Shown here: piece by piece, positions 1 through 13,043 of the stretch | Position numbering within the stretch: position 1 is the first letter of the stretch | Layout: each line of letters opens with the position of its first letter | Translations under genes and position numbers: made by a program | Notes under the pieces: generated by a model | Told to the model about the DNA's origin: nothing | The model's database searches: none | The model's input: only the letters and a program-made list of their open reading frames with translations | DNA from: Candidatus Omnitrophota bacterium | Lineage (GTDB): Bacteria; Ratteibacteria; UBA8468; B48-G9; JAFGKM01 | Reading direction: 5' to 3' | Assembly (NCBI GenBank): GCA_016928555.1 | Contig: JAFGKM010000047.1 | Location: 462 to 64,461 of the forward strand | DNA: 64,000 nucleotides

Positions 1-587
1 CGAAATCTAGCAACCGGATTTCTGGTAATTATATCCATCAACAGTAGGTATTTAACGGTTTTATCCGGTTTACTTTCAGTATGCCATTTCCAAATTGCCA
101 TAGGGAAAGCAGCTGCTCGGACAGGTAAATATGGAATATGGGCACCGAGAATACCCATGAAATTTTCGCTTAATGAAGAGTCTTGGCCAGTAGACACCTG
201 CTTTACATATCCGCAGGATATGGTAATAATGTCATTCCATTTGGCAGTATAAGTTTTGTTGCTTGAGTCAAGAAAAACAGTCAGCGTATCGGGAAGACAA
301 GCAATCTTTGTTATATTTAAAGCTTTAGGTATTTCTATCAGGCAGCTTTCGGGAACAATAAAACTACTGACGCCCATTCCTTTTAGCTTAGTTACCAATT
401 CTTCCGCTTTTTCTTTTGCAGTTCTGCGGCAAACAATTCCTTTTGTCTGTCCAGCCAGAAACAAGGCGTCTGCAAAAAGAATATCAAGAGTCGTTGCCAA
501 GGCATTGGCTAATTCTGGCACCTTTATGACCGGAGCCCACTCTTCCTGGATGACCGCAAATCCCTCCCGTTTTTCTTTGTCTTCCAT
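1..587 (-). CDS. hypothetical protein, 5' partial (N-terminal about 195 aa; gene continues beyond the window start)
   Basis: Uninterrupted minus-strand reading frame from ATG (revcomp of cat 585..587) to position 1: MEDKEKREGFAVIQEEWAPVIKV.... Absent from ORF track because it runs off the edge. The + strand ORF 256..633 is antisense to it. No recognisable domain by eye. Confidence 0.4.
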   Translation of the reverse strand, partial: MEDKEKREGFAVIQEEWAPVIKVPELANALATTLDILFADALFLAGQTKGIVCRRTAKEKAEELVTKLKGMGVSSFIVPESCLIEIPKALNITKIACLPDTLTVFLDSSNKTYTAKWNDIITISCGYVKQVSTGQDSSLSENFMGILGAHIPYLPVRAAAFPMAIWKWHTESKPDKTVKYLLLMDIITRNPVARF

Positions 588-791
588 TTTATTGGATTAT
601 ATCACTTTTACCAGCTATCCAAAATTTTACTGATCGACCGTTTTCATGCAAATTTAAATAGCAATCTAACAAAATAAATATCCAGATTTTTCAGCGAGAA
701 TTCATGCTGCACTCCTTAAAAAGGCAGCTGTAACATGTATCCCAGTCTTAAGTAGCTTATTGAGACAACAAGAGATGGAAAGAATTATTGT

Positions 792-1331
792 CTATTTTGG
801 AATCTGCCAAATCCATTTATAAATCGCCCAAATTGCTAACGCGATATAACCAGAAATGAAAAGCCCTGTAGTAAAGGAAGCAAAAGTTCGTGCCCGTATT
901 CCACCAAGACCTCCCCTAGATGCATCTGCTGAAGCTTTTCCTGATGTATATAGAGCAAGATTGCCGAGTTTGAGACGACTCTCATGCTCTCTCATTTTAG
1001 CGACATACATATTGTGATACTCCCATGCACGCCTTAGGGTTAAATGCCAAAGCAATGAATACAATACTCCGACAAAAGCTAAAGCTATAGTGAATAAGGG
1101 ATGCATTGCACTCCTGAAGTAACTGAGTACTGGAATGCCAGCACTATTCAATGCGATAAAAAGACTGGTTCTTGACCAAATCATCTGGCCCTCAGCAATT
1201 TTAATATTCGACACTACCTGATACGACGCTAATATTGAAGCTTCCTTTGTCTCGATATTGGAAGAATCTAATAATTTTCTGAGGTCAACGCTAATCTTTT
1301 CAAGCAAATCAAGAGTCCTATCATCAATCAT
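792..1331 (-). CDS. small membrane protein: about 50-aa N-terminal helical region plus 3 predicted TM helices; candidate effector partner of upstream ATPase
   Basis: ATG start with RBS AAGGGGGTG upstream. Hydrophobic segments about aa 51-72, 78-98, 150-172. Lies 34 bp downstream of the PHP-ATPase gene on the same strand. No catalytic motifs seen. Confidence 0.5.
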   Translation of the reverse strand: MIDDRTLDLLEKISVDLRKLLDSSNIETKEASILASYQVVSNIKIAEGQMIWSRTSLFIALNSAGIPVLSYFRSAMHPLFTIALAFVGVLYSLLWHLTLRRAWEYHNMYVAKMREHESRLKLGNLALYTSGKASADASRGGLGGIRARTFASFTTGLFISGYIALAIWAIYKWIWQIPK

Positions 1332-1365
1332 AGCACACCCCCTTATAAGTTAGAATTTTCAACTT

Positions 1366-4353
1366 TTATGACTTCCTGATATACTTTGTATCTCGTATTT
1401 CGAAAGCTGGCATTGTTCCTTCTAAAACATCAACAACTCTCTTATTTGTAGCTGGATTTTCAATGCTTCCAGCAGAATACCTGACTTGATTTAATTTTTT
1501 ATCCATCTGGGCATAAATAACCTGTTCGGCATCGCAAACTACTGCTAAATTGGGATTGTGTGTTACGGCGATAATTTGACGTTTCTGCTTAGCTTGTTTC
1601 ATATAGGGCACAAGCAAACTGTAAACAGACTCATTGTCTAGATTTTCCTCTGGCTGGTCAATTATAAGGGGTATATTGTCTCTATCAATCAGCAAATAAA
1701 AGATGAGTAACAAAGCACCTTTCTCGCCAGGAGACAATTCATTACTATTTAAATCTTTATTGTTGAACAGGACTTTGAATTTAACATCCAAATAGCCAAG
1801 CCCGAATAAGAAATCGTATAGTTTTATATTTTCTTCATCGCTTCCTCTGATTTGAGAGCGTAAGTCATTTTCCGTAGCTGGAGTTTTAGTTTTATCAAAA
1901 TTAAGATGCTCTATTAAATCATTGATAAAATTAATAATGGCCGTATCAGTTTTGAAATCGTATTTTGCTATTATACCGTCTAAAATATTTTGCCCATTCA
2001 CTATGTTTTGGAAACTCCCATCTCTATTACGATTGAGAAAGGTGAAAAAATCACTGGCAAAAGATTGCTTATCAAATGTAGTTCCAACGTCAAAACTTAA
2101 CATACTTCCGGATTTCTCCTGGGTCTTTTTTTCTTGCTTGATAAATTTAATTACTGGGCTGTATACTTCCTTATAAAAATCTATCTTTTTTATTAACTCT
2201 TGGTGTAGATTCTTCAATGCTTTAATACGTTCATTCTTTTCGGTTTCCAATTCCTTGGCAAGGTTTGATTTTATGTATTTAATTTCTTTCTCAATAGATT
2301 TGATGGTTTCCAATGAAGCATCGTCTTCTGCCCCTTCAATTTCTTTTTGCCTTGCTTTAAACTGGCAAACTTTTTCAATGTAGTCATCATATACTTTTTG
2401 TTCAGCAGTGAATGCCTTTGTTATTTCTTCTTTTTCGGTCTTGAGTTTTGCTTTCTTATTATAAAAACTAATCTTTGAGCTATTATCATCTTGTTCTAAT
2501 AAATAATCCAATCTCTTTTTTTCTTTTAATAATTCGTCTTCCTTTTGTGTGAGCATTGTATCATTTATCGTGAGCTTAATAAGTTCGGATAAATCGATGG
2601 AAAGCAAATCAGCATCCGTTTTCACCTTCTTCAACACTTCACTATGCTTGTCTTGTAATTGGCTTACTACACTTTTGATGTTGCCAAGTTTTGAAATCTT
2701 ATTATTTACATCTTTGAGGAACGTTTTTGCCTCCGAAATCTTCTTTTCAATATCTTCTAATTCTTTGGTTATTTTATCCAATTTTGCTTGATCTGATTCT
2801 GAAAGAGTGGATTTTGGTTTCTTCACTTCTTTCGGCTCGGTTAAAGCGTTTAGTTCTCGTCTTTTCTCATCTAGTTTATTAGTTAATCCGGCTAAATAGT
2901 CTTTCCTTTTCTTCTTTTCCATCATCACCATTTTCCTATTTATGGCGTTCAGTTCACTATGCAAGCAAGTTATCTTCTCCTCTACAGATTGAGTCTTAAT
3001 TTTGATTAATTCACTAAGTGTCAAAGCTCCAAGCCTACTTTCATCCGGAACATATGCAAAAATGACTTTTTCAATTTCTCGCTGAAATAAAGTGCTTACT
3101 CCAGTTTCATCACAAATTCTTTCAACAAACTTTTGTGGAAGGTATTTAACTTTTTCCACCTCGATGGCAGTATTAACCTCAGTGTTCAAATTAGCTTTTT
3201 CATTTGCTTGCCCATTTAACCATTTTAGGGTCGCTTCGTAATTTTCAGCCAAACCCCGCTTACGAAATTTACTTTTATTCAAAAAGGAATAGTCATTCGG
3301 ATCAATTTTGCTATTACCACAGCGACTAACTATGTCTGTAAAAGCACTCTTACCGCTGCCCTTACGACCAATCACAGCAATTAAACCATTATTTAATGGC
3401 AACTCATTATCAAACCATGAACCATTCTTGCCCTTGATTGAATTGACTTTGATTGAATCGATATATTTTGACCTATTTCCTTCAACCTCTAGAAGTTTAG
3501 GTGGCTTGAGTCCAATAAAAACTCTATCATGCGGTTCATTCTGCAATTGTTTAAGCCCCTCAAAAGTAGGATCAGCTTTTATCCAACAATACTTTTCGGC
3601 AGGATTGGATTTTTTATCTTTCAACTTCCCTACAGGATAGGTAGCTTCGTGAGAGTCACTACCTTTCATGCATGGTAATGGTTTCTCGAACCAATTCTTA
3701 TAGTCTTCTTCGTTGAATTTATTGTCTCTCCACAGAAAAAACTCGATTTGCTTTTCTGTAGAACTTCCAATGATGTCAGATTTCTTGATTAAACCCAATT
3801 TAAAAAAATTATCATTGGGATCTATATCGTCGATCCCACCATACTCGTCATAAGGCAACCAGATTAAAACCTCATTGCGGAGACCAAAAGTTTTCAAACT
3901 TTCTACAATCCCAAAAAAATCAACTGTGATTTTTTCTATATCTGGTTTGGGAATATTCCCGAGCTGGTCGTTATTACCTTGCGCATTATAGCAACTCAAG
4001 GAAGATAGCCAGATCTTTGCTCTTTTAAAAAAATCAGGATTGTTATTAAAAATCAGATGAAAGTTAATTTTTGCACCTTTCTGAATCGGTGTTCCTTTAC
4101 GGTTTGCCACAATATTATGCATACGAAGTTCTATAACGGGGAATAGAAACCTGTTTTTAATTCCACCCCTCTTTAAAATCTCTTCGTATCCTTCAAATGT
4201 ACAGTAGTCGTTAATACCCAAAACTTTCGCATCAGAAGCAGTCAATGTTTTTATAAGCTCGTCATAAGTTCCGATATAGCCAAATGAAGCTGGAGAATGA
4301 ATATGCAAATCCCACTTTTGCCACTCAGAACCTCGCGAAGACAAATTATTCAT
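1366..4353 (-). CDS. PHP-domain phosphoesterase fused to SMC/Rad50-like ABC ATPase with long coiled coil (995 aa); candidate anti-phage protein
   Basis: N-terminus WDLHIHSPAS...LGINDY (PHP family HxH motif). Walker A VIGRKGSGKSAFT at about aa 330. About 300 aa of K/E-rich heptad coiled coil. C-terminal ABC signature LSPGEKGALLL, Walker B LIIDQPEENLD, H-loop AVTHNP. Real ATG start. Confidence 0.7.
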   Translation of the reverse strand: MNNLSSRGSEWQKWDLHIHSPASFGYIGTYDELIKTLTASDAKVLGINDYCTFEGYEEILKRGGIKNRFLFPVIELRMHNIVANRKGTPIQKGAKINFHLIFNNNPDFFKRAKIWLSSLSCYNAQGNNDQLGNIPKPDIEKITVDFFGIVESLKTFGLRNEVLIWLPYDEYGGIDDIDPNDNFFKLGLIKKSDIIGSSTEKQIEFFLWRDNKFNEEDYKNWFEKPLPCMKGSDSHEATYPVGKLKDKKSNPAEKYCWIKADPTFEGLKQLQNEPHDRVFIGLKPPKLLEVEGNRSKYIDSIKVNSIKGKNGSWFDNELPLNNGLIAVIGRKGSGKSAFTDIVSRCGNSKIDPNDYSFLNKSKFRKRGLAENYEATLKWLNGQANEKANLNTEVNTAIEVEKVKYLPQKFVERICDETGVSTLFQREIEKVIFAYVPDESRLGALTLSELIKIKTQSVEEKITCLHSELNAINRKMVMMEKKKRKDYLAGLTNKLDEKRRELNALTEPKEVKKPKSTLSESDQAKLDKITKELEDIEKKISEAKTFLKDVNNKISKLGNIKSVVSQLQDKHSEVLKKVKTDADLLSIDLSELIKLTINDTMLTQKEDELLKEKKRLDYLLEQDDNSSKISFYNKKAKLKTEKEEITKAFTAEQKVYDDYIEKVCQFKARQKEIEGAEDDASLETIKSIEKEIKYIKSNLAKELETEKNERIKALKNLHQELIKKIDFYKEVYSPVIKFIKQEKKTQEKSGSMLSFDVGTTFDKQSFASDFFTFLNRNRDGSFQNIVNGQNILDGIIAKYDFKTDTAIINFINDLIEHLNFDKTKTPATENDLRSQIRGSDEENIKLYDFLFGLGYLDVKFKVLFNNKDLNSNELSPGEKGALLLIFYLLIDRDNIPLIIDQPEENLDNESVYSLLVPYMKQAKQKRQIIAVTHNPNLAVVCDAEQVIYAQMDKKLNQVRYSAGSIENPATNKRVVDVLEGTMPAFEIRDTKYIRKS

Positions 4354-4400
4354 AGCTATATTTTATCAAAATATCGTCATTTCAGCGATTTTTCTTGCGT

Positions 4401-6752
4401 TTAAAATTTTAAATCTTCCCAATCACTCCAATCGTTTCTCTCGCACTTAGCCCAGTTATATTTCTCTTTCTGGTTTATTTTCCATCTGCCGTTCTTTTCC
4501 AACACGATGCCGCCGAAAAAGTTCTTGCCTTGGTTGTTTTGCTCTTTAATATATTCTTGTAACTTTTCATTTTTCGCTTTCGTATATGTTTTGCCGTCAC
4601 GGTCCCCTGCTTCCTTCACCTCAAACACTCCTATCCGGCCGTCCGTTAATTGAACGAGATAATCGGGATAGAATGTATGTATAACTCCCTCCGGATATTC
4701 GTATTTAATTCCGAAATAATCTTTCTTGTTTTCGCCGTTTTTCCACCACCAGACAATTTTTCCGAAGTTTTCATTCAGAAATTTCTCAAACTGCTTTTCA
4801 GGAGTATACCTATCCACATTCAAATAGCATGGGTCATATACGTATTTCTTGCTATCAATTTTTTCATCAGCGTGTTTGTTATAAAAACTCTTCGGTGCAA
4901 TTTCGAATTCATACCATTGTTCGCTCTCTTCTATTTTTTTCTTGATTTCCTGTCCACGGATTGTTTTGTATTTTTCAATGGCATCCGCCAGAACCCTCTC
5001 AAACTGTCTTCTGTTTCCGTTATGTAAAAAAATCATCTGTACGAGAATAGCCTCTTCCGGCCAATCCTTTGCACCGAGATATTTCCTGAACCAGGAATAA
5101 ATTGCGGTCTTTACTTTCGGCACCGATCTTTTGATATTTTTGAACGAACCGAGATTGTTTTTGATGACCTGTTCAAATAGGGCCTGCAGGTCATTTCCCG
5201 CAATGGTCAGACGAGCAAAAGCATCGGCATCAATCTTACCCTCAATTTCATCAAAAACCTTTGCGTCAATCTTCGCATCAGTAATAATATCCTGTTGATA
5301 TTCCTTGATGTCAAGAATCATACCCGTCTGTTCCAGTTTCTCGATATTTTGACTGGGGAAAATATGATCGCCTTTCAGGCCGAAGTACTTACAGGATACT
5401 TCTTCGAATACCGGCGTAAAACTTGACGTAATATCGCCATAATCGGCACGTGACTTATAATAGGAAATAATGTTTGTCGGTTTGTATGCCGCAACGCGCT
5501 TGGCCGGTAGATGCTTAATTATGTTCGGATTGTATTCTTCTTTTTTAACAATAATGCTTTGAACATTCGTGTAAATATAGCCGATATTAAGGGGTTCGCT
5601 GGCATAATGCTTCTGTTCCGGCATTCTCAAAATACGCCCGACCGTCTGAATTTCAAAAGTTTCACTGTGAGACTCCCGGAATTTTACCAAAATATGGGCA
5701 CGCGGGCAGTCCCATCCGGTATCAATAGCCTGTTTGAAGATAAGAAATTCAATTTCATTATCCAAATCCTTGACCCATTCTTTCTTGGGACCCAAAGCGG
5801 CTGATTTTTCATCTGCTGTCCAAATTGCAAGTTTACGATTTTTCTCCGTTATGCCTTTGCGCGTCAAGAATTCTTTAACTGCTTTTATTTTATCCTCTCC
5901 CGCTTCCGCGGTCGGTATCTGAACAAGGGTAAGAGGATTTACAATAGATTTCTCGGCCTCAAAAAGTTTTTTCAGTTCTTTGCGCTTCTGATATGCCGCT
6001 TCCATGACTATTTCTTGGGAGTCAGTTTCGTTATTGCCGATTTCGTCTATTTTTTCGTTAATAATTAATTCTTTTTTAATCATCCCACTATTTATAACTT
6101 CTGCTGGTTCAATAAAAATAAATCCTGCCATACCTCGAGCCATATCACGCGGGTCAGGTTGAATCTTTGGCGTCGCACTCATCTCTAAAATAACGTCTGC
6201 ATTTATTTCCTCGCGCAGTTCGTTTGTACGTTCAGCTGTTGCTCCAATATGACTTTCGTCTATGATTAAAATGATTTTCCGTTGTTCTTTTGTTTTTACC
6301 AGAACATCGCGAAAATTCTTTCCATCACCGTCTTTCATCAAAACATTTTTCCAATCTCCGGTCCGACGATCCTTGCTTCGCAATTTTTCCCAATTTGCTA
6401 CCGCTATCTCGTTTTTTACAATCCGTTCGCGTCCGCCGGTAAATTCTTCTTCAACAAGCGATACTCTTGGCGCTCCTCCGAAAATTTCCTCCAGACAACG
6501 TTTACTCTGTAAATGTAAATCACCCTTACCTATACTTACCCATATGAAGCATAAATTTTCATAAACCAATTCTTTTATAATCTCTTCAATAAATTTTGCG
6601 GTCATTATAGTTTTTCCGCTACCGGTAGGGGCCTGAAAAACACATACTTTTTTCTGCCCTTCTTTTTCAAGCAGACCTTTTACAGTACTGACAAGTTCTT
6701 CAACGGCTTTTTCCTGATAGGGTTTCAGTTCAATATTCATAAATTTGCTCAT
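4401..6752 (-). CDS. res: Type III restriction enzyme Res subunit (SF2 helicase plus C-terminal PD-(D/E)xK nuclease)
   Basis: Motif I QAPTGSGKT, motif II LIIDESH (DEAH). C-terminal FYPDYLVQL...GVFEVKEAGD nuclease-like motif. Start overlaps mod stop by 23 nt (operon). Confidence 0.8.
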   Translation of the reverse strand: MSKFMNIELKPYQEKAVEELVSTVKGLLEKEGQKKVCVFQAPTGSGKTIMTAKFIEEIIKELVYENLCFIWVSIGKGDLHLQSKRCLEEIFGGAPRVSLVEEEFTGGRERIVKNEIAVANWEKLRSKDRRTGDWKNVLMKDGDGKNFRDVLVKTKEQRKIILIIDESHIGATAERTNELREEINADVILEMSATPKIQPDPRDMARGMAGFIFIEPAEVINSGMIKKELIINEKIDEIGNNETDSQEIVMEAAYQKRKELKKLFEAEKSIVNPLTLVQIPTAEAGEDKIKAVKEFLTRKGITEKNRKLAIWTADEKSAALGPKKEWVKDLDNEIEFLIFKQAIDTGWDCPRAHILVKFRESHSETFEIQTVGRILRMPEQKHYASEPLNIGYIYTNVQSIIVKKEEYNPNIIKHLPAKRVAAYKPTNIISYYKSRADYGDITSSFTPVFEEVSCKYFGLKGDHIFPSQNIEKLEQTGMILDIKEYQQDIITDAKIDAKVFDEIEGKIDADAFARLTIAGNDLQALFEQVIKNNLGSFKNIKRSVPKVKTAIYSWFRKYLGAKDWPEEAILVQMIFLHNGNRRQFERVLADAIEKYKTIRGQEIKKKIEESEQWYEFEIAPKSFYNKHADEKIDSKKYVYDPCYLNVDRYTPEKQFEKFLNENFGKIVWWWKNGENKKDYFGIKYEYPEGVIHTFYPDYLVQLTDGRIGVFEVKEAGDRDGKTYTKAKNEKLQEYIKEQNNQGKNFFGGIVLEKNGRWKINQKEKYNWAKCERNDWSDWEDLKF

Positions 6753-8430
6753 AAATGTCTAAAATTTTCTGAGGAATGGGTTCCAGTTTCACATTCTTCC
6801 AGTTGGCAAAATCCTCCTTATCCAACCCGAGGGGATCCAGAGTAAAACAGTAAAGCGTTTTCTCTCCAACCATGTTGTCTAAATTCCTTTTAAGTTCTGA
6901 AAGTCCTTCATGTTCTAAAGCATAGTATATTGCCATTATGTGTCCGTTCTGCTCAAAAATCCGGTAATCCTGCTCTTTTCTCTTTTCCTCAAAAATTCCC
7001 TCGCGTAAACAGAGCATTTCCGTACATTCCCTGGTAATTCTTATTTTTAAATCATCTCTGCTGATGGATTTTTTAACAAAAGATGTCTTGAAATATTTCA
7101 GATTTCCTCCAAGCCCTTCAATTCCTTCTCCTTTTGGTATTTTATAGCCCTTTATTGCTTTCTGTATGCGCGGATAACATGCATCAATGCAAATATTCTC
7201 TTCGTTGTTGGTACAAAGAATAAACTGGCGATTGCTACCGTCCTTTTGTTTGTTTAGTTTTAAAATAGCATGACCGGTTGTTCCTGATCCCGCGAAAAAA
7301 TCAAGGCATATAATAGACTTACTGCGTATCATTTCTATTATCATTTGTATTAAAGCTGTTGGCTTCGGGTTAGAAAAATTGATTCCCATTTCCTTCAACT
7401 CTTTAGTTCCACTACTGTTAATTACTTCGGTTATTAAGTTCTTAAACGGAGCTCCGCGTTCAATAGCATTCCCCTCGTTGTCAGCAAACATATAGTTTTT
7501 ATAGCAAACAGACCAGCCACTTGCCTTTGTTTTTGATTTTCTAAATTCTAAATAGCCATTTTCTTCTGCCCATTTAATTTTCTCTTTCCCCCACTTCCAT
7601 GTCCACCCATCATTTTTAAATTTTGTTCGACCATTCGGAAAGGTCATTTTTCCATTTGGAGTCTTGATTGCATAATTTAACGAATCACTATAACGAAGAC
7701 CACCACGATCAAGGTTGTCAATATAATAGGCACCCCGCTCCTTAAAAAACTCATCTTTGTATTTGTATCTTTCTATATTATATGAATCATAATTTTGCGA
7801 AAAAATATCTCTCCACCTTTCTACTAAATTATTTTTACAATAAACTAAAATATATTCAGTAATGGTCGCGATTCCTTTTGCGTCTGATGCTCCAGTTTTC
7901 CTTCGCCATATAATTGGACTTACAAAGTTTTGCTCTCCAAATATTTCATCGCAAAGCAGTTTTAACTGTGCAATTTCATTATCATCTATTGAGATAAATA
8001 TAACGCCGTCATCTTTCAATAAATTTTTTGCCAATCGCAAACGCTTACTCATAAACGAAAGCCATTTGCTATGGCGATATGCGTCTTCTTTATCCACATA
8101 ATCGTCGTTGTATTTAAAATCTTTATTTCCCGTGTTATACGGCGGATCAATGTAAATAACATCAATTTTGCGTTGGTGGGTGTAATTCAAGACAGATAGA
8201 GCGTGATAGTTGTCGCCTTCAATCAAAATGTTCGTCGGCTTTTTGATGTCGGTTTTGATTTCCTTGCCTTTGACTTCTCTCAAAACTGGCAAGGCGTTTT
8301 CTGATTCTTTTTCAAATTGCTCTTTAGTTTTTTCTTCATCCCAGACAATACCGTATTTCTTACGGGATTCCAATTTCTCAATAATTTTGAGAAGGTCGTT
8401 TTTTTCTATCTTTGAATAATCTTTAGCCAT
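6730..8430 (-). CDS. mod: Type III R-M Mod subunit, N6-adenine DNA methyltransferase
   Basis: Motif IV IYIDPPYNTG, SAM-binding FFAGSGTTGHA. Immediately upstream of and overlapping res. Confidence 0.8.
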   Translation of the reverse strand: MAKDYSKIEKNDLLKIIEKLESRKKYGIVWDEEKTKEQFEKESENALPVLREVKGKEIKTDIKKPTNILIEGDNYHALSVLNYTHQRKIDVIYIDPPYNTGNKDFKYNDDYVDKEDAYRHSKWLSFMSKRLRLAKNLLKDDGVIFISIDDNEIAQLKLLCDEIFGEQNFVSPIIWRRKTGASDAKGIATITEYILVYCKNNLVERWRDIFSQNYDSYNIERYKYKDEFFKERGAYYIDNLDRGGLRYSDSLNYAIKTPNGKMTFPNGRTKFKNDGWTWKWGKEKIKWAEENGYLEFRKSKTKASGWSVCYKNYMFADNEGNAIERGAPFKNLITEVINSSGTKELKEMGINFSNPKPTALIQMIIEMIRSKSIICLDFFAGSGTTGHAILKLNKQKDGSNRQFILCTNNEENICIDACYPRIQKAIKGYKIPKGEGIEGLGGNLKYFKTSFVKKSISRDDLKIRITRECTEMLCLREGIFEEKRKEQDYRIFEQNGHIMAIYYALEHEGLSELKRNLDNMVGEKTLYCFTLDPLGLDKEDFANWKNVKLEPIPQKILDIYEQIYEY

Positions 8431-8711: not shown

Positions 8712-9476
8712 TTATGTAATATTGATAATACCTTTGCATTGAGGGTATTTTGAGCATCCCCAGAATTTTTTGCCTGAATTCTGCCCTTTTTTAACTTCCC
8801 GCAAGACCATAGGACTTCCGCATCTCGGGCATAAATTGGCCGCCTTTTTCTCTTCGGCAATCTGACGGACGTGCTTTACATGTTCCCGCTCAGTCTTTAA
8901 GGATGGAGTTAATCTTCCCTCTTCAATCTTAGCTGTAATTTCAGAAACTTCAGATTCGGTAAATACCTGTTCGGTCTTGGACTTTATAAAACGGGCTAAC
9001 TCACCTCCGCCGCTGGTAACGTTTTCCGGCATATCTGTTTTAAATTCGCTTTCTCCGGCAAACGCAACCACTGAATATATCTGTTTATCATTTAGTCCGA
9101 GCAATGCCTGAAGGGTTTTAACGTGCTTGTAGTTCTGGTGCAGGGGATTCTGGAATTCGCCTGTATGGCTGTAAATTTTCTGGGTCCATGTTTTCTGGTC
9201 CGCGGAACCAAAAATCCAGCCTTTCATGTTTTTCGTTTCAACCACAAAGATTCCATATACCGAAAGAATTATATGGTCGATTTGAGTTGTCCCATTTTCG
9301 GTGGGCAGAGTGACATTGTTTATAATGCGGTACTTGTCTTTATCCAGCAGCATCTTGAAGGAGAGCCTTACTGTTCCTTCTCCAAATCGCCCTTTAAACC
9401 ATGGGGATTTAAGGAAAACTCCTAATGCAATGAAGGCACCCAAAATTAAATAAAGTTTTAAAATGGCACCGGTCAT
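8712..9476 (-). CDS. NERD domain protein with N-terminal TM helix and C-terminal topoisomerase-type C4 zinc ribbon
   Basis: N-terminal hydrophobic helix. NERD-like core GEGTV...DHIILSVYGIFVVETKNMKG. C-terminus CPRCGSPMVLREV...WGCSKYPQCKG (zf-C4 topoisomerase type). Confidence 0.65.
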   Translation of the reverse strand: MTGAILKLYLILGAFIALGVFLKSPWFKGRFGEGTVRLSFKMLLDKDKYRIINNVTLPTENGTTQIDHIILSVYGIFVVETKNMKGWIFGSADQKTWTQKIYSHTGEFQNPLHQNYKHVKTLQALLGLNDKQIYSVVAFAGESEFKTDMPENVTSGGGELARFIKSKTEQVFTESEVSEITAKIEEGRLTPSLKTEREHVKHVRQIAEEKKAANLCPRCGSPMVLREVKKGQNSGKKFWGCSKYPQCKGIINIT

Positions 9477-9671
9477 AATAGCTCCTCCTGTATAGGCTGC
9501 AGAATATATAATTGAAATATCTTAACTTATAAGCATACAAAGTCAAAATCAGTATTCTACTACCAACAGGAGTTGATGATCTCGGTGGAATCCGTACAGC
9601 AGTATATCTTAATGTTGTTAACATTTTTATAGTAAACGTTTTAAGTGAAATTATAAATTTTGCATGAAAAC

Positions 9672-9700
9672 TTGACAAATTGAAAAAGTGGTTGTATAAT
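9672..9700 (+). promoter_or_regulatory. consensus sigma70 promoter (TTGACA, 17 nt spacer, TATAAT) driving the xis-like/int operon
   Basis: TTGACA at 9672..9677 and TATAAT at 9695..9700 with exact 17-nt spacer. RBS GGGAGGTGA and ATG at 9721 follow. Confidence 0.55.
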
Positions 9701-9720
9701 GTTTGCGGGAGGTGAGAATC

Positions 9721-10656
9721 ATGGTTCTAAGAGAAAGAACGCGTATTGGTAAAAAGGAAGTGGCGCTCTGGCAGTATGCACTGAGGGTTTTCAGGGAGGA
9801 TATGTACTGGTCGCGCGAGCAGTTGGCACAGTACATTGGGGTTTCGACGAGAAGTATTGTTTATTGGGAAGAGGGGCAAGAACCTGGCTTAAGGGCCCAA
9901 GCAAAATTGGTTATGGCTTTACAGGAATTACCAGTGCAGATAGAAAGAATGTCTAAAAGGTTTTTTTCGCGTTTTTTTCCGGCAACAGCTATGCTTACCG
10001 GGGAAGAAATCATAAAAATTCTTGAAAGCAAAGGTCTCGATAAGAAGATAAAAAGTGTTTTGGCAGAAGAAATGCCCGAAATTGCAGACCTCCCCTTCCG
10101 TGAGGCACTGTATGTCTGTTCACAGAAAAAACCGGAGCTTGAGGACGGGTACATGCAGAACCGGGAAGCTGAGCAGTACGTAAAATTGCAGAAAGTTTAT
10201 ACCGCACTTAAGGGAAAAAAGAAAAATCCGGGAGTGTCTTTTGCAAGGCGGAAAGCGCCGGAAAGCAAGAAACCGGTGGCGGGAAAAGGAAGGGGCGGAC
10301 AAAGACGCAAGACAAAAGATCCTGGCGGGGGAGACGACGAAGGAGGCTCAGATTCAGATGGTGACTCTTCTGAAACAGGAGACGAGGATGTATGGCTTGA
10401 TATCGGGCAACTTGCACGGTATCTTAATATCAAGGAATCAACATTGTACTCGTGGGCAGAAAGCAAGTTTATACCAAGTTACAAATTAGGAAGGTTACGG
10501 CGATTTAATAAAGGGGAAATTGATTCATGGATAAAGCAACGCGGAAATCATGACGGAAATTCCCCGACGTTCATTGACAATTTGACAAGGGATTTGCGGA
10601 AAACCAGACCCGGCTACAGGGTCAACCACAAGGAGGTTGACAATGGCTCTTTTTAA
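9721..10656 (+). CDS. DNA-binding protein with N-terminal XRE-like HTH, low-complexity K/G/D/E linker, and C-terminal excisionase/AlpA-type HTH
   Basis: ORF track start 9703 is TTG; the first ATG with RBS is 9721. C-terminal WLDIGQLARYLNIKESTLYSWAESKFIPSYKLGRLRRF resembles excisionase/MerR-type HTH_17. Overlaps the integrase start. Confidence 0.6.
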   Translation: MVLRERTRIGKKEVALWQYALRVFREDMYWSREQLAQYIGVSTRSIVYWEEGQEPGLRAQAKLVMALQELPVQIERMSKRFFSRFFPATAMLTGEEIIKILESKGLDKKIKSVLAEEMPEIADLPFREALYVCSQKKPELEDGYMQNREAEQYVKLQKVYTALKGKKKNPGVSFARRKAPESKKPVAGKGRGGQRRKTKDPGGGDDEGGSDSDGDSSETGDEDVWLDIGQLARYLNIKESTLYSWAESKFIPSYKLGRLRRFNKGEIDSWIKQRGNHDGNSPTFIDNLTRDLRKTRPGYRVNHKEVDNGSF

Positions 10657-11716
10657 ACGAGGCCGGTTTTACTGGTTTTCCAAGAATATCGGAGGGAAGC
10701 ATTATCGGGAGTCTACCGGTTGCGCGGAACGCAATGAAGCAGAGGTGTTCTACGCTAAATGGTTGCTGAAGCATAACCATGTGCCTCCACAGACAGAGAA
10801 TTTATACCAGCGACCACAGGCGAGTTCTTTAACGCTTGAGCAATTGGTGGACAAGTGTTTCAAGCATCGTTCCTTCAGCAAGCTTGCTCTGCAATCTCAA
10901 AGAAGGTACAGAACTTCTGCAAAACTCTTCTTGGACAAGTTAGGCAATCTCCCGGCAGACGAGATTACTACCGATATGCTGGAGGATATTCAGAAAGACC
11001 GCCTAGCAGAAGGGATAAATACATCCACCATAGACAGAGATTTTGCTTTTTTACGCCATCTCTTTAACTGGGGGATTGACCATGAATATTGCAAAAAGAA
11101 CCCAGTTAAAAACTGGCTCTTTGAAAAGGCAAACAATGCTCGGACCAGGCGGCTTTCTGATGAAGAAGAGAATCTGATCCTTGCGGAAATGAAGAAAGAA
11201 AACCTTAACGGGTTTTTAACCATAACCGTTTTGGGACTATACACCAGGGGCAGGAGAGCGGAAATAACAAACCTGCGGCGCAAGAATATAGACCTTGAAG
11301 AGAGAACGATTACATACGAGGTGACGAAAAACAAGACGCCTCGGGTTGAGCCTCTCTGCCAAATTGCCTATATGACACTTGAAGCCTGGCTAAAGGACAA
11401 AAACTTCTCTCCTCAAGACTATATTTTCCCGGGCATCACACCTGACAGAGTAACCAGAATCTTCATCCGGATAACCAGGAAGCTGGGTATAAAAGATCTC
11501 CGGTTTCATGACACCGGAAAGACTTTTACGAACCGGCTTATAGAAGCTAAGGCAGATATCTACAGCGTGAGCAAGCTTTCTGGACATAAGAGCATTTCGG
11601 TTCTGGAGAAGTACTATCTTAATCCCAGAATACTGCCCTCTCTCAGTGAAGAAGTGGCAAAACTGGACAGGAATCTGTCACAATTTGTCACAATTTTGGA
11701 GTCCGGGAAGAAATGA
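10643..11716 (+). CDS. int: tyrosine site-specific integrase (phage integrase family)
   Basis: N-terminal RGRFYWFS...KHYRESTG arm-binding-like region. C-terminal catalytic LRFHDTGKTF (HxxR) and GHKSISVLEKYY (catalytic Tyr). RBS AAGGAGG 7 nt before ATG 10643 (track start 10637 is TTG). Adjacent to the tRNA-Thr 3' end. Confidence 0.85.
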   Translation: MALFKRGRFYWFSKNIGGKHYRESTGCAERNEAEVFYAKWLLKHNHVPPQTENLYQRPQASSLTLEQLVDKCFKHRSFSKLALQSQRRYRTSAKLFLDKLGNLPADEITTDMLEDIQKDRLAEGINTSTIDRDFAFLRHLFNWGIDHEYCKKNPVKNWLFEKANNARTRRLSDEEENLILAEMKKENLNGFLTITVLGLYTRGRRAEITNLRRKNIDLEERTITYEVTKNKTPRVEPLCQIAYMTLEAWLKDKNFSPQDYIFPGITPDRVTRIFIRITRKLGIKDLRFHDTGKTFTNRLIEAKADIYSVSKLSGHKSISVLEKYYLNPRILPSLSEEVAKLDRNLSQFVTILESGKK

Positions 11717-11765
11717 AAAAGGAAGGTTTTGCAGATGCAAATGCATGACGTACAACAACTTAATT

Positions 11766-11840
11766 TGGAGCCCATGGTCGGACTTGAACCGACGACCCGC
11801 GCATTACGAATGCGCTGCTCTGCCGCTGAGCTACACGGGC
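11766..11840 (-). tRNA. tRNA-Thr(CGU)
   Basis: Revcomp gives GCCCGTGTAGCTCAGCGGCAGAGCAGCGCATTCGTAATGCGCGGGTCGTCGGTTCAAGTCCGACCATGGGCTCCA. Cloverleaf with anticodon loop TTCGTAA (CGT), T-loop GGTTCAAGTCC, CCA encoded. Confidence 0.85.
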
Positions 11841-11900: not shown

Positions 11901-13043
11901 TCACGCATCATTAACAAAAATATCTGCGTATTTTTTATACACGTACGATTTATCATACGTTCTTTTCGGATCACGATCATGTAAAATGCCAAGACCAATA
12001 AAACGGTCAATAAGATTTTGCGCACCGGCACGCGTAAATCCGGTCCATTTCTGGATTCTCGCAACGTTCACAATGGGCATTCTGTAAAGTTGCGGAAGTA
12101 CCTTAATGGCACTTTCCGATGAACGTTTACTCAGGGATTGGATTTTCAGCATATCTTGTTCCCGCAATTTGGTGATATCAAGAACCGTATGAATTGCTTC
12201 ATTGGCAATTTCTTCAACCCCGTCAAGGAAAAATTCAATCCACTCTTCAACATCTCCATCGTGATATTTATCAAGACAATCATAATATACCTTCTGATGC
12301 TTCTTGAAATATGAAGACAAGAAAAGCATCGGTTTTTCAAGAAGCTTTTCTCTCCAGAGGTAAAACGTAATAAGCATCCGGCCTGTACGCCCGTTGCCAT
12401 CCAGAAAAGGATGAATTGTTTCAAATTGCGCGTGAAGAAGTCCTGCTTTTATCAAAGGCAAAACATCGTCTTTTGCATGAAGGAATTTTTCCAAATCATT
12501 CAGGGAACGCTCCATATCGGTAACCGGTGGCGGTACAAAATGAGCATTGCTCGGTCTTGTCCCGCCTACCCAATTCTGGCTGCTGCGAAATTCCCCGGGA
12601 TTTGCAAATTGAGTTGCCCGTGCACCTTTCATTAACTCCTTATGTAATTCCTTAAGAAAACGCAAACAGAAAGGGAATTTTTTCAATCGTTCCAAACCAT
12701 AGTTGAGGGCTTTAATGTAATGCAGAATATCATCCACGTCCGCAGGAATGTCTGAACTAACATTGGCTTCTGCTTCAATGGCGTTAATTATTGTCGCTTT
12801 CGTTCCTTCAATCTGGCTTGACGATGCCGCATCTTTTCTTATGTACATAAACAAGAAGAAATCCATGTCCGGCAAAAGCTGGGTGATGCCGTCCAATTTT
12901 CCAAGTAATCGGATAGCCGTATCATTCTTTCTCTCTATCGCGCGGGAAAAATGAAATCCGCCCTTAGGAGGAAAGAGATAAGGGATGAAAGCCTCGAACC
13001 CACTTTTCTGTCGTCGTAATTCGCCTATTAGTATTTTTTCCAT
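11901..13043 (-). CDS. fic: Fic family protein (AMPylator/Fic-DOC), class II with N-terminal inhibitory motif
   Basis: Fic motif HPFLDGNGRTGR. N-terminal SxxIEG (SSSQIEGT) inhibitory-helix motif. ATG start. Confidence 0.85.
   Translation of the reverse strand: MEKILIGELRRQKSGFEAFIPYLFPPKGGFHFSRAIERKNDTAIRLLGKLDGITQLLPDMDFFLFMYIRKDAASSSQIEGTKATIINAIEAEANVSSDIPADVDDILHYIKALNYGLERLKKFPFCLRFLKELHKELMKGARATQFANPGEFRSSQNWVGGTRPSNAHFVPPPVTDMERSLNDLEKFLHAKDDVLPLIKAGLLHAQFETIHPFLDGNGRTGRMLITFYLWREKLLEKPMLFLSSYFKKHQKVYYDCLDKYHDGDVEEWIEFFLDGVEEIANEAIHTVLDITKLREQDMLKIQSLSKRSSESAIKVLPQLYRMPIVNVARIQKWTGFTRAGAQNLIDRFIGLGILHDRDPKRTYDKSYVYKKYADIFVNDA

Follow-up and report, generated by a model that had tools for sequence, protein, structure and literature searches.

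A TrlF-family PHP-ATPase beside Type III restriction-modification genes in a Candidatus Omnitrophota genome

Near one end of a 64,000-nucleotide (nt) stretch of a Candidatus Omnitrophota genome (assembly GCA_016928555.1, contig JAFGKM010000047.1, positions 462 to 64,461; hereafter the window) lies a gene for a 995-amino-acid (aa) protein that combines a PHP phosphoesterase with an SMC-like ATPase. It is followed on the same strand by genes for a small membrane protein and a further protein (gene 3) and preceded by a Type III restriction-modification (R-M) pair. The question raised by this locus is whether the large protein works by itself, belongs to a system that includes its downstream neighbors, or serves the R-M enzymes. 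The best explanation, to which we assign a probability of about 70%, is that it is a self-contained nuclease-ATPase resembling the defence protein Ppl and an ordinary member of the catalogued TrlF family, the membrane protein and gene 3 being passengers.

Family and architecture of the large protein

The 995-aa protein scores 597.9 bits on the NCBIfam model NF045780 ("TrlF family AAA-like ATPase"; curated cutoff 350 bits), with aa 7-991 aligned to positions 1-943 of the 944 in the model. It is a full-length match above the cutoff and shows no structural difference from the family (sister family Spaf_1101, NF045781). The gene and the predicted parts of its product are as follows, in window coordinates:

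1366..4353, minus strand: TrlF-family (Ppl-like) protein, 995 aa (NCBIfam NF045780, AlphaFold2 [AF2] model, Foldseek)
3499..4332, minus strand: PHP domain, about aa 8-285 (invariant columns, N-terminal profile against the PDB, Foldseek)
3019..3462, minus strand: N-terminal half of the ATPase head, about aa 298-445 (Pfam AAA_23; Walker A at 329-336, Q-loop Q407)
2110..3018, minus strand: helical coiled-coil insertion, about aa 446-748 (AF2 secondary structure, cysteine positions, Foldseek matches to SMC/Rad50 coiled coils)
1381..2109, minus strand: C-terminal half of the ATPase head, about aa 749-991 (Pfam AAA_21, SMC_N; LSPGEK, Walker B, D-loop, H-loop)

The PHP domain, the split SMC-like ATPase with about 300 aa of coiled coil, and every motif quoted in an initial annotation made from the letters alone were recovered at the expected positions: WDLHIHSP (aa 14-21), Walker A GRKGSGKS (329-336), signature LSPGEK (873-878), Walker B LIIDQPEE (896-903), and H-loop THNP (931-934). 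In an alignment of 54 homologs these motifs are invariant or almost so. The conserved PHP residues are H17, H19, D49, E75, H99, D233, and H235, with H17, H19, E75, and D233 invariant and H99 and H235 present in at least 90% of the homologs; G329, K335, S336, and Q407 of the ATPase are invariant as well.

Pfam recognizes the ATPase parts only (AAA_21, AAA_23, SMC_N), and the PHP model PF02811 falls below its gathering score on the sequence of the window protein (12.4 vs 26.4 bits, E 0.2). The same model matches two of 15 full-length TrlF homologs (best E 1.2e-8). A profile built from the N-terminal 280 residues matched RNase AM in the PDB (1.9e-5, with DLHxH aligned), then EndoQ, YcdX, TM0559, and the PolC PHP domain. 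In the AlphaFold model of the protein (pLDDT 86.3, pTM 0.71), Foldseek matched the N-terminal domain to RNase AM, BAD_1165, 9etk, 3o0f, and the PHP domains of PolC/PolIII, and the remainder to the heads and coiled coils of SMC, Rad50, MukB, RecN, LmuB, and JetC (best match 5xei, E 7e-10). Profiles and predicted structure together confirm a fold of the PHP metal-dependent phosphoesterases at the N-terminus and, fused to it, an ABC ATPase of the SMC/Rad50 type with about 300 aa of coiled coil between the two halves of its head. No CxxC zinc hook was found in the coiled coil, where C463 and C663 are the only cysteines within aa 446-748.

An ABC head with a coiled coil is shared with LmuB of Lamassu, JetC of Wadjet, AriA of PARIS, and SbcC/Rad50 (Foldseek E 1e-7 to 1e-5), and the protein also gives weak HMM matches to AriA and LmuB. 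Those proteins use separate nuclease or partner subunits, whereas in TrlF the nuclease is fused and there is no conserved partner.

The initial annotation also noted a resemblance to Ppl, which was reportedly described by Gao et al. in 2020 as a single-gene anti-phage protein. The resemblance is one of real, distant homology. The Ppl equivalog model NF042955 (curated cutoff 1000 bits) gave 84.3 bits over aa 829-987 only, below its cutoff, and the best-scoring stretch of the PADLOC Ppl model on the window protein is likewise the C-terminal lobe alone. The reference Ppl used here, the annotated ppl product of an E. coli IncF plasmid (891 aa), scores 1330 bits on the Ppl model and 477 bits, full-length, on the TrlF model, and Ppl is therefore placed as a subfamily within the broader TrlF family. 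BLASTP between Ppl and the window protein returned three collinear blocks with 26-34% identity: a start of the form GS-W-x-(W/F)-D-(L/F)-H-x-H, a stretch from GSD(S/A)H to Walker A, and the lobe from the signature to the H-loop (34% identity). In both proteins a PHP domain at the N-terminus precedes an ABC ATPase that is split by a helical insertion; both carry the HxH, GSDxH, Walker A, and C-terminal ATPase motifs, and both exceed the TrlF cutoff. They differ in length, the window protein being about 100 aa longer (995 vs 891 aa), and in setting, its gene coming from a Candidatus Omnitrophica metagenome-assembled genome (MAG) and being embedded in an operon-like Type III R-M block. Judged by sequence, the window protein is a distant full-length homolog of Ppl and not a Ppl ortholog.

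The TrlF family is large and patchily distributed. At E <= 1e-10 at least 2206 homologs came up in a word-indexed search, and 574 loci were confirmed when one genome was scanned for each species. Neighborhoods were analyzed in the best 80 of these 574 and in the six closest relatives of the window protein (86 loci in all); the 80 span Patescibacteria, Bacteroidota, Actinomycetota, Proteobacteria, Firmicutes, Verrucomicrobiota, and others. Full-length relatives occur on 44 plasmid records, and more divergent TrlF or Ppl genes on hundreds of conjugative plasmids of E. coli and Klebsiella; phage genomes essentially lack the family. Examples are pECAZ159_1, where the gene adjoins colicin genes, and pM107_FII; on clinical plasmids the family is common. 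On plasmids the TrlF genes stand alone among unrelated neighbors, and TrlF and Ppl are alike in being stand-alone genes in mobile or defence contexts.

Placement in this family bears on what is new. NCBI annotation already uses the TrlF name for relatives on genomes and plasmids, and in GenBank the exact match to the window protein, from a Candidatus Omnitrophica MAG, is entered as a "hypothetical protein"; it is now placed in a named family that contains a validated defence protein. The TrlF family and Ppl were already known, and the window adds one further member.

The same architecture would suit a housekeeping DNA repair enzyme, an analogue of SbcCD/Mre11-Rad50 in which the fused PHP domain takes the place of the Mre11/SbcD nuclease. 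The best structural matches are indeed SMC, Rad50, and RecN heads, and PHP domains act as proofreading exonucleases in PolX and PolIII. Such a role is nevertheless highly improbable, given the patchy distribution, the frequent occurrence on conjugative plasmids, the linkage to R-M genes, the homology to a validated defence protein, and the position of the window gene in a low-G+C island by an integrase and a tRNA gene.

The two genes downstream

The small membrane protein and gene 3 had been proposed as additional components, forming with TrlF one multi-gene defence system in which the ATPase would license a membrane-disrupting effector. The two genes are:

792..1331, minus strand: 179-aa membrane protein, Pfam 8xMP (PF24838)
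3..587, minus strand: gene 3, family unassigned by models; open reading frame (ORF) from the ATG at 587, running off the window (282 aa when complete in L090)

The ORF coordinates, the 34-nt spacing, the strong ribosome-binding site, and the third co-oriented gene reaching to 587 all stand as first described. The TrlF and 8xMP genes lie on the same strand with an AAGGGGG Shine-Dalgarno sequence before the latter and no terminator predicted between them, and per-gene G+C content and third-position G+C (GC3) do not distinguish the 8xMP gene from the TrlF gene. Gene 3 follows the 8xMP gene after a 204-nt gap that holds an element of its own, TGATATAAT, which is -10-like. Because promoter-like matches barely exceed expectation (39 vs 28 +/- 5.4 in shuffled sequence), no operon inference was drawn.

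This compact, co-oriented layout favors a shared system, and comparison across genomes speaks against it. Relatives of the 8xMP protein or of gene 3 were found in 0/80 of the diverse TrlF loci (BLASTP, phmmer, and hmmsearch with family profiles), and no 8xMP relative lies near TrlF in the six closest relatives (0/6; L174, L175, L176, L081, L083, and L084, at 55-66% identity). The initial annotation had itself named a failure of the ATPase homologs to co-occur with the membrane-protein gene as telling against its proposal, and in all 86 sampled loci that gene is absent. Conversely, neither TrlF nor a gene 3 relative was found near the 8xMP gene in 84 other loci (0/84), retrieved with a tighter 8xMP subfamily alignment, and no partner is conserved there. 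No relative of gene 3 occurs near any of the fetched TrlF or 8xMP loci. Across the 80 genomic loci the neighbors of TrlF are highly variable; the only recurrent families are HsdM, HsdS, HsdR, Type III Mod and Res, a YhcG PDDEXK protein, a Schlafen/AlbA_2 protein, and integrases/recombinases.

What follows TrlF also changes among its closest relatives:

L174: no ORF of 60 aa or more in 519 nt
L175: 56-aa soluble ORF, then the contig end
L176: unrelated 205-aa soluble protein
L081: PD-Lambda-3_A-like protein
L083: a different three-transmembrane (3-TM) protein
L084: a Z1/Mod/DUF3800/ResIII set

The 3-TM protein of L083 (9045..9482, 145 aa) begins 71 nt after a TrlF gene whose product is 57% identical to that of the window, and it matches the PADLOC model for the CBASS "2TM effector" (E 7.5e-5), although the locus has no cyclase gene close by. 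It was considered as an 8xMP homolog and rejected, the similarity being non-significant (hmmsearch E 0.03 in a small database, hhalign probability 16%) and the likeness one of analogy only. In L081, positions 1..5200, the TrlF relative lies in a dense defence island, beside an SMODS/AGS_C cyclase with a SLATT_4 effector and a ThiF/Multi_ubiq pair with an S24 peptidase regulator. Counting the window, the gene immediately after TrlF encodes a small membrane protein in two of seven clade members, which is regarded as an effect of the defence-island neighborhood. A Kyte-Doolittle scan found a small multi-TM protein in 1/48 co-oriented downstream genes; since the scan is too strict, finding only one of the predicted helices of the window 8xMP protein, this figure is a lower bound and is not relied on.

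The 8xMP assignment itself is above threshold: the 179-aa protein scores 38.7 bits on PF24838 (gathering threshold 30 bits), with aa 36-170 aligned to positions 3-135 of the 136 in the model. A word-indexed search returned only the protein itself. Exhaustive searching with HMMER yielded 96 relatives, of which the nearest shares 43% identity, and in NCBI and UniRef part of the family goes by the name "RipA family octameric membrane protein". In the AF2 model of the monomer (pLDDT 83.5) helices cover aa 4-22, 26-72, 78-119, and 142-176, and hydrophobic stretches near aa 53-72, 78-98, and 150-172 fall in three of the four predicted long helices. It had been suggested that the protein be checked for a SLATT-like 2TM fold; no SLATT match appeared even at E up to 10, and 8xMP is the family recovered instead. 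The comparison with 2TM/SLATT-type effectors is an analogy only, in that the 8xMP protein is also small, helical, and membrane-type, with a soluble N-terminal helix. There was no significant match in the PDB (sequence profile, Foldseek) or BFVD (Foldseek), none in PADLOC, and none by tblastn against plasmids and phages, and no cyclase or SMODS gene was found in the window between TrlF and the island edge. Literature searches on 8xMP or the RipA octameric membrane protein yielded nothing relevant; Francisella RipA is reported to be a 3-TM protein of about 178 aa.

Elsewhere, 8xMP genes lie in defence or mobile islands at L086 and L088. A possible partner of 8xMP is hinted at only by a gene for a 133-aa protein and a MEDS-domain gene, which recur in 7-10 of the 84 loci. 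In L139, L140, L144, L148, L157, L158, and L160 the 133-aa protein and a 189-aa MEDS/KaiC-like protein are encoded upstream of one 8xMP subfamily.

Gene 3 is seen whole in L090, a second assembly of the window locus, where it occupies 7568..8416 and encodes a 282-aa soluble protein with no match in Pfam, NCBIfam, or PADLOC.

A system made of TrlF, the 3-TM protein, and gene 3 would be supported by the co-orientation, the short gap, the strong ribosome-binding site, the lack of a predicted terminator, the effector-like protein in the L083 slot, and the island settings of other 8xMP genes. It is very unlikely in view of the failure to co-occur in either direction (0/80 and 0/6 TrlF loci, 0/84 8xMP loci), the solitary TrlF and Ppl genes of plasmids, the 204-nt gap with its -10-like element before gene 3, and the closest relatives: L174 has no sizeable ORF after TrlF, L176 has another downstream gene and a res remnant that brackets TrlF alone (see below), and the L083 protein shows no significant relationship to 8xMP. 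The 8xMP gene and gene 3 are probably independent passengers of the island and no part of the system, and the apparent three-gene unit an accident of neighborhood.

Linkage to restriction-modification and likely function

The partner that is conserved lies on the other side of TrlF. Directly upstream in the window are the two genes of the Type III R-M pair, identified by Pfam and PADLOC in agreement with the initial annotation:

4401..6752, minus strand: Type III restriction subunit, Res (Pfam ResIII, PADLOC REase_III)
6730..8430, minus strand: Type III methyltransferase, Mod (PADLOC MTase_III, 304.5 bits; Pfam N6_N4_Mtase)

The mod and res genes overlap by 23 nt, and the end of res is separated from the TrlF gene by a 47-nt gap. 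L176 keeps the order Mod-Res-TrlF, with 67%, 69%, and 55% identity to the window proteins, respectively, and the order is also found in L001 and L058. In L175 (TrlF at 65% identity) the gene 4 nt upstream has a Type III Res endonuclease domain. Because res lies directly before TrlF in L176, L175, L001, and L058, the conserved partner is placed upstream of TrlF; the res-TrlF gaps in the window, L175, and L176 are 4-47 nt. The linkage extends to Type I systems, TrlF lying between hsdS and hsdR in L055, L029, and L075 and between hsdM and hsdR in L024.

Counting only R-M genes clustered with one another, 18/71 TrlF loci had such genes within 5 kb vs 1/40 control loci, the controls being shorter metagenome contigs (Fisher p = 0.0014). 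In 12 of the 71 the R-M genes are immediately adjacent to TrlF and co-oriented with it.

L176 also carries, about 150-284 nt past the TrlF stop (6105..6239), a 45-aa remnant of a res 3' end. The remnant is 51% identical to the C-terminus of the Res protein of the same locus (E 2e-12), and a 34-nt DNA match stands at 91%. The remnant brackets TrlF and no other gene as the inserted cassette, and it resembles a scar left by entry of that cassette at the end of res. A similar res 3'-end remnant was searched for after TrlF, 8xMP, and gene 3 in the window and in L090 and was not found.

RloC is a Rad50-like anticodon nuclease, and PrrC and RloC are stand-alone defence genes within R-M loci. TrlF is like them in joining a nuclease to an ABC/Rad50-like sensor in or beside R-M operons, in its position between hsdS and hsdR in several loci, and in the cassette-insertion scar of L176. 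It is unlike them in that its effector is a PHP phosphoesterase and not an anticodon nuclease, and in that its coiled coil has no zinc-hook CxxC.

Linkage this close could mean that TrlF is an accessory subunit of the Type III R-M system with no activity of its own, for example one that processes or extends restriction cuts. The retention of Mod-Res-TrlF in L176, the short res-TrlF gaps, and the significance of the association across the family would fit. Even so, such a subunit is unlikely: the majority of TrlF loci have no R-M genes nearby, the partner switches between Type I and Type III, TrlF is solitary on plasmids, and its homolog Ppl is reported as a single-gene system (PMC12904381, PMC11482910).

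Reviewed work on Ppl gives the best guide to function. Ppl is reported to be active as a single gene (PMC12904381, PMC11482910); bound nucleoside triphosphates (NTPs) inhibit both its PHP and its NTPase domain, and it responds to nucleotide depletion and to 3'-OH ends (review PMC12904381; see also PMC11482910). NTP-inhibited 3'-5' exonuclease activity on single-stranded DNA and phage protection are known only for E. coli Ppl (PMC12904381). The window protein is predicted to hold the PHP and NTPase domains in one polypeptide, as in Ppl. By analogy, TrlF most likely senses DNA ends and works as an exonuclease in the manner of Ppl, either by itself or beside the R-M system, and a defence role is likely. 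By homology to Ppl, the ATPase heads would bind nucleotide and serve as a DNA sensor and clamp, and the PHP domain would then degrade foreign DNA from free 3' ends. Since R-M systems are what the family is conservedly linked to, ends made by restriction are a plausible substrate. That linkage, including the cassettes at the 3' end of res, suggests a synergy of restriction cleavage with an end-dependent exonuclease. TrlF/Ppl-like genes are abundant, on clinical conjugative plasmids of E. coli and Klebsiella among other places, and their association with R-M operons of Types I and III is significant; this family-level linkage is the most useful lead from the window, and current defence-system categories are unchanged by it.

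A broader reading joins the two sides of the gene. TrlF would be a widespread Ppl-like branch that partners R-M through restriction-made ends as trigger or substrate, and in the clade of the window protein the downstream slot would take up one small protein or another, accessory or effector (8xMP; the CBASS-type 2TM protein in L083; the PD-Lambda-3_A-like protein in L081), and this protein would modulate the outcome, for instance from DNA degradation to membrane-mediated abortive infection. We regard this as improbable.

Several points weigh against TrlF as a self-contained, Ppl-like enzyme with passengers downstream. The 34-nt gap, the strong ribosome-binding site, and the lack of a predicted terminator make co-transcription with the 8xMP gene possible, and the close relative L083 also has a 3-TM protein in the same slot. 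Gene calling in the fetched loci followed a crude longest-ORF rule. In roughly three of every four TrlF loci there is no clustered R-M gene nearby, so coupling to R-M is not obligatory. Identity to Ppl is low, 26-34% over three local segments, so that substrate and trigger could differ from those of Ppl. Experiments within the TrlF family are confined to Ppl proper, and no literature was found under the name TrlF.

The surrounding island

The defence setting suggested by the Type III R-M pair is borne out by the wider gene content. On the minus strand, gene 3, 8xMP, TrlF, Res, Mod, and a NERD/zinc-ribbon protein form one string, followed by an HTH_17/HTH_3 protein, an integrase, and a tRNA-Thr gene. 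The features beyond mod are:

8712..9476, minus strand: NERD nuclease-related domain with a topoisomerase-type C4 zinc ribbon, 254 aa, 281 nt upstream of mod
10637..11716, plus strand: tyrosine integrase (Pfam Phage_integrase)
11766..11840, minus strand: tRNA-Thr(CGT) (ARAGORN), 50 nt from the integrase end
11901..13043, minus strand: Fic-domain protein, SoFic (PADLOC SoFic, 361.8 bits, almost end to end)

The G+C content is 35-42% in the island vs 46% in the rest of the window, and the region is a predicted tRNA-integrated defence island. The HTH/integrase/tRNA-Thr region (9703..11840) is likely its right-hand boundary, the left end lying beyond the window. In that region a 317-aa protein with HTH_3 and an excisionase-like HTH_17 domain overlaps the start of the tyrosine integrase gene. 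SoFic lies just past tRNA-Thr, and defence genes are therefore present on both sides of the integration site. The NERD protein gives weak matches to PglW and MAD6, in the NERD regions at their N-termini. Between the NERD and HTH genes, at 9650..9700, two near-consensus sigma-70 promoters stand back to back (12/12 on the plus strand, 11/12 on the minus strand), and they look like a divergent regulatory region of the island.

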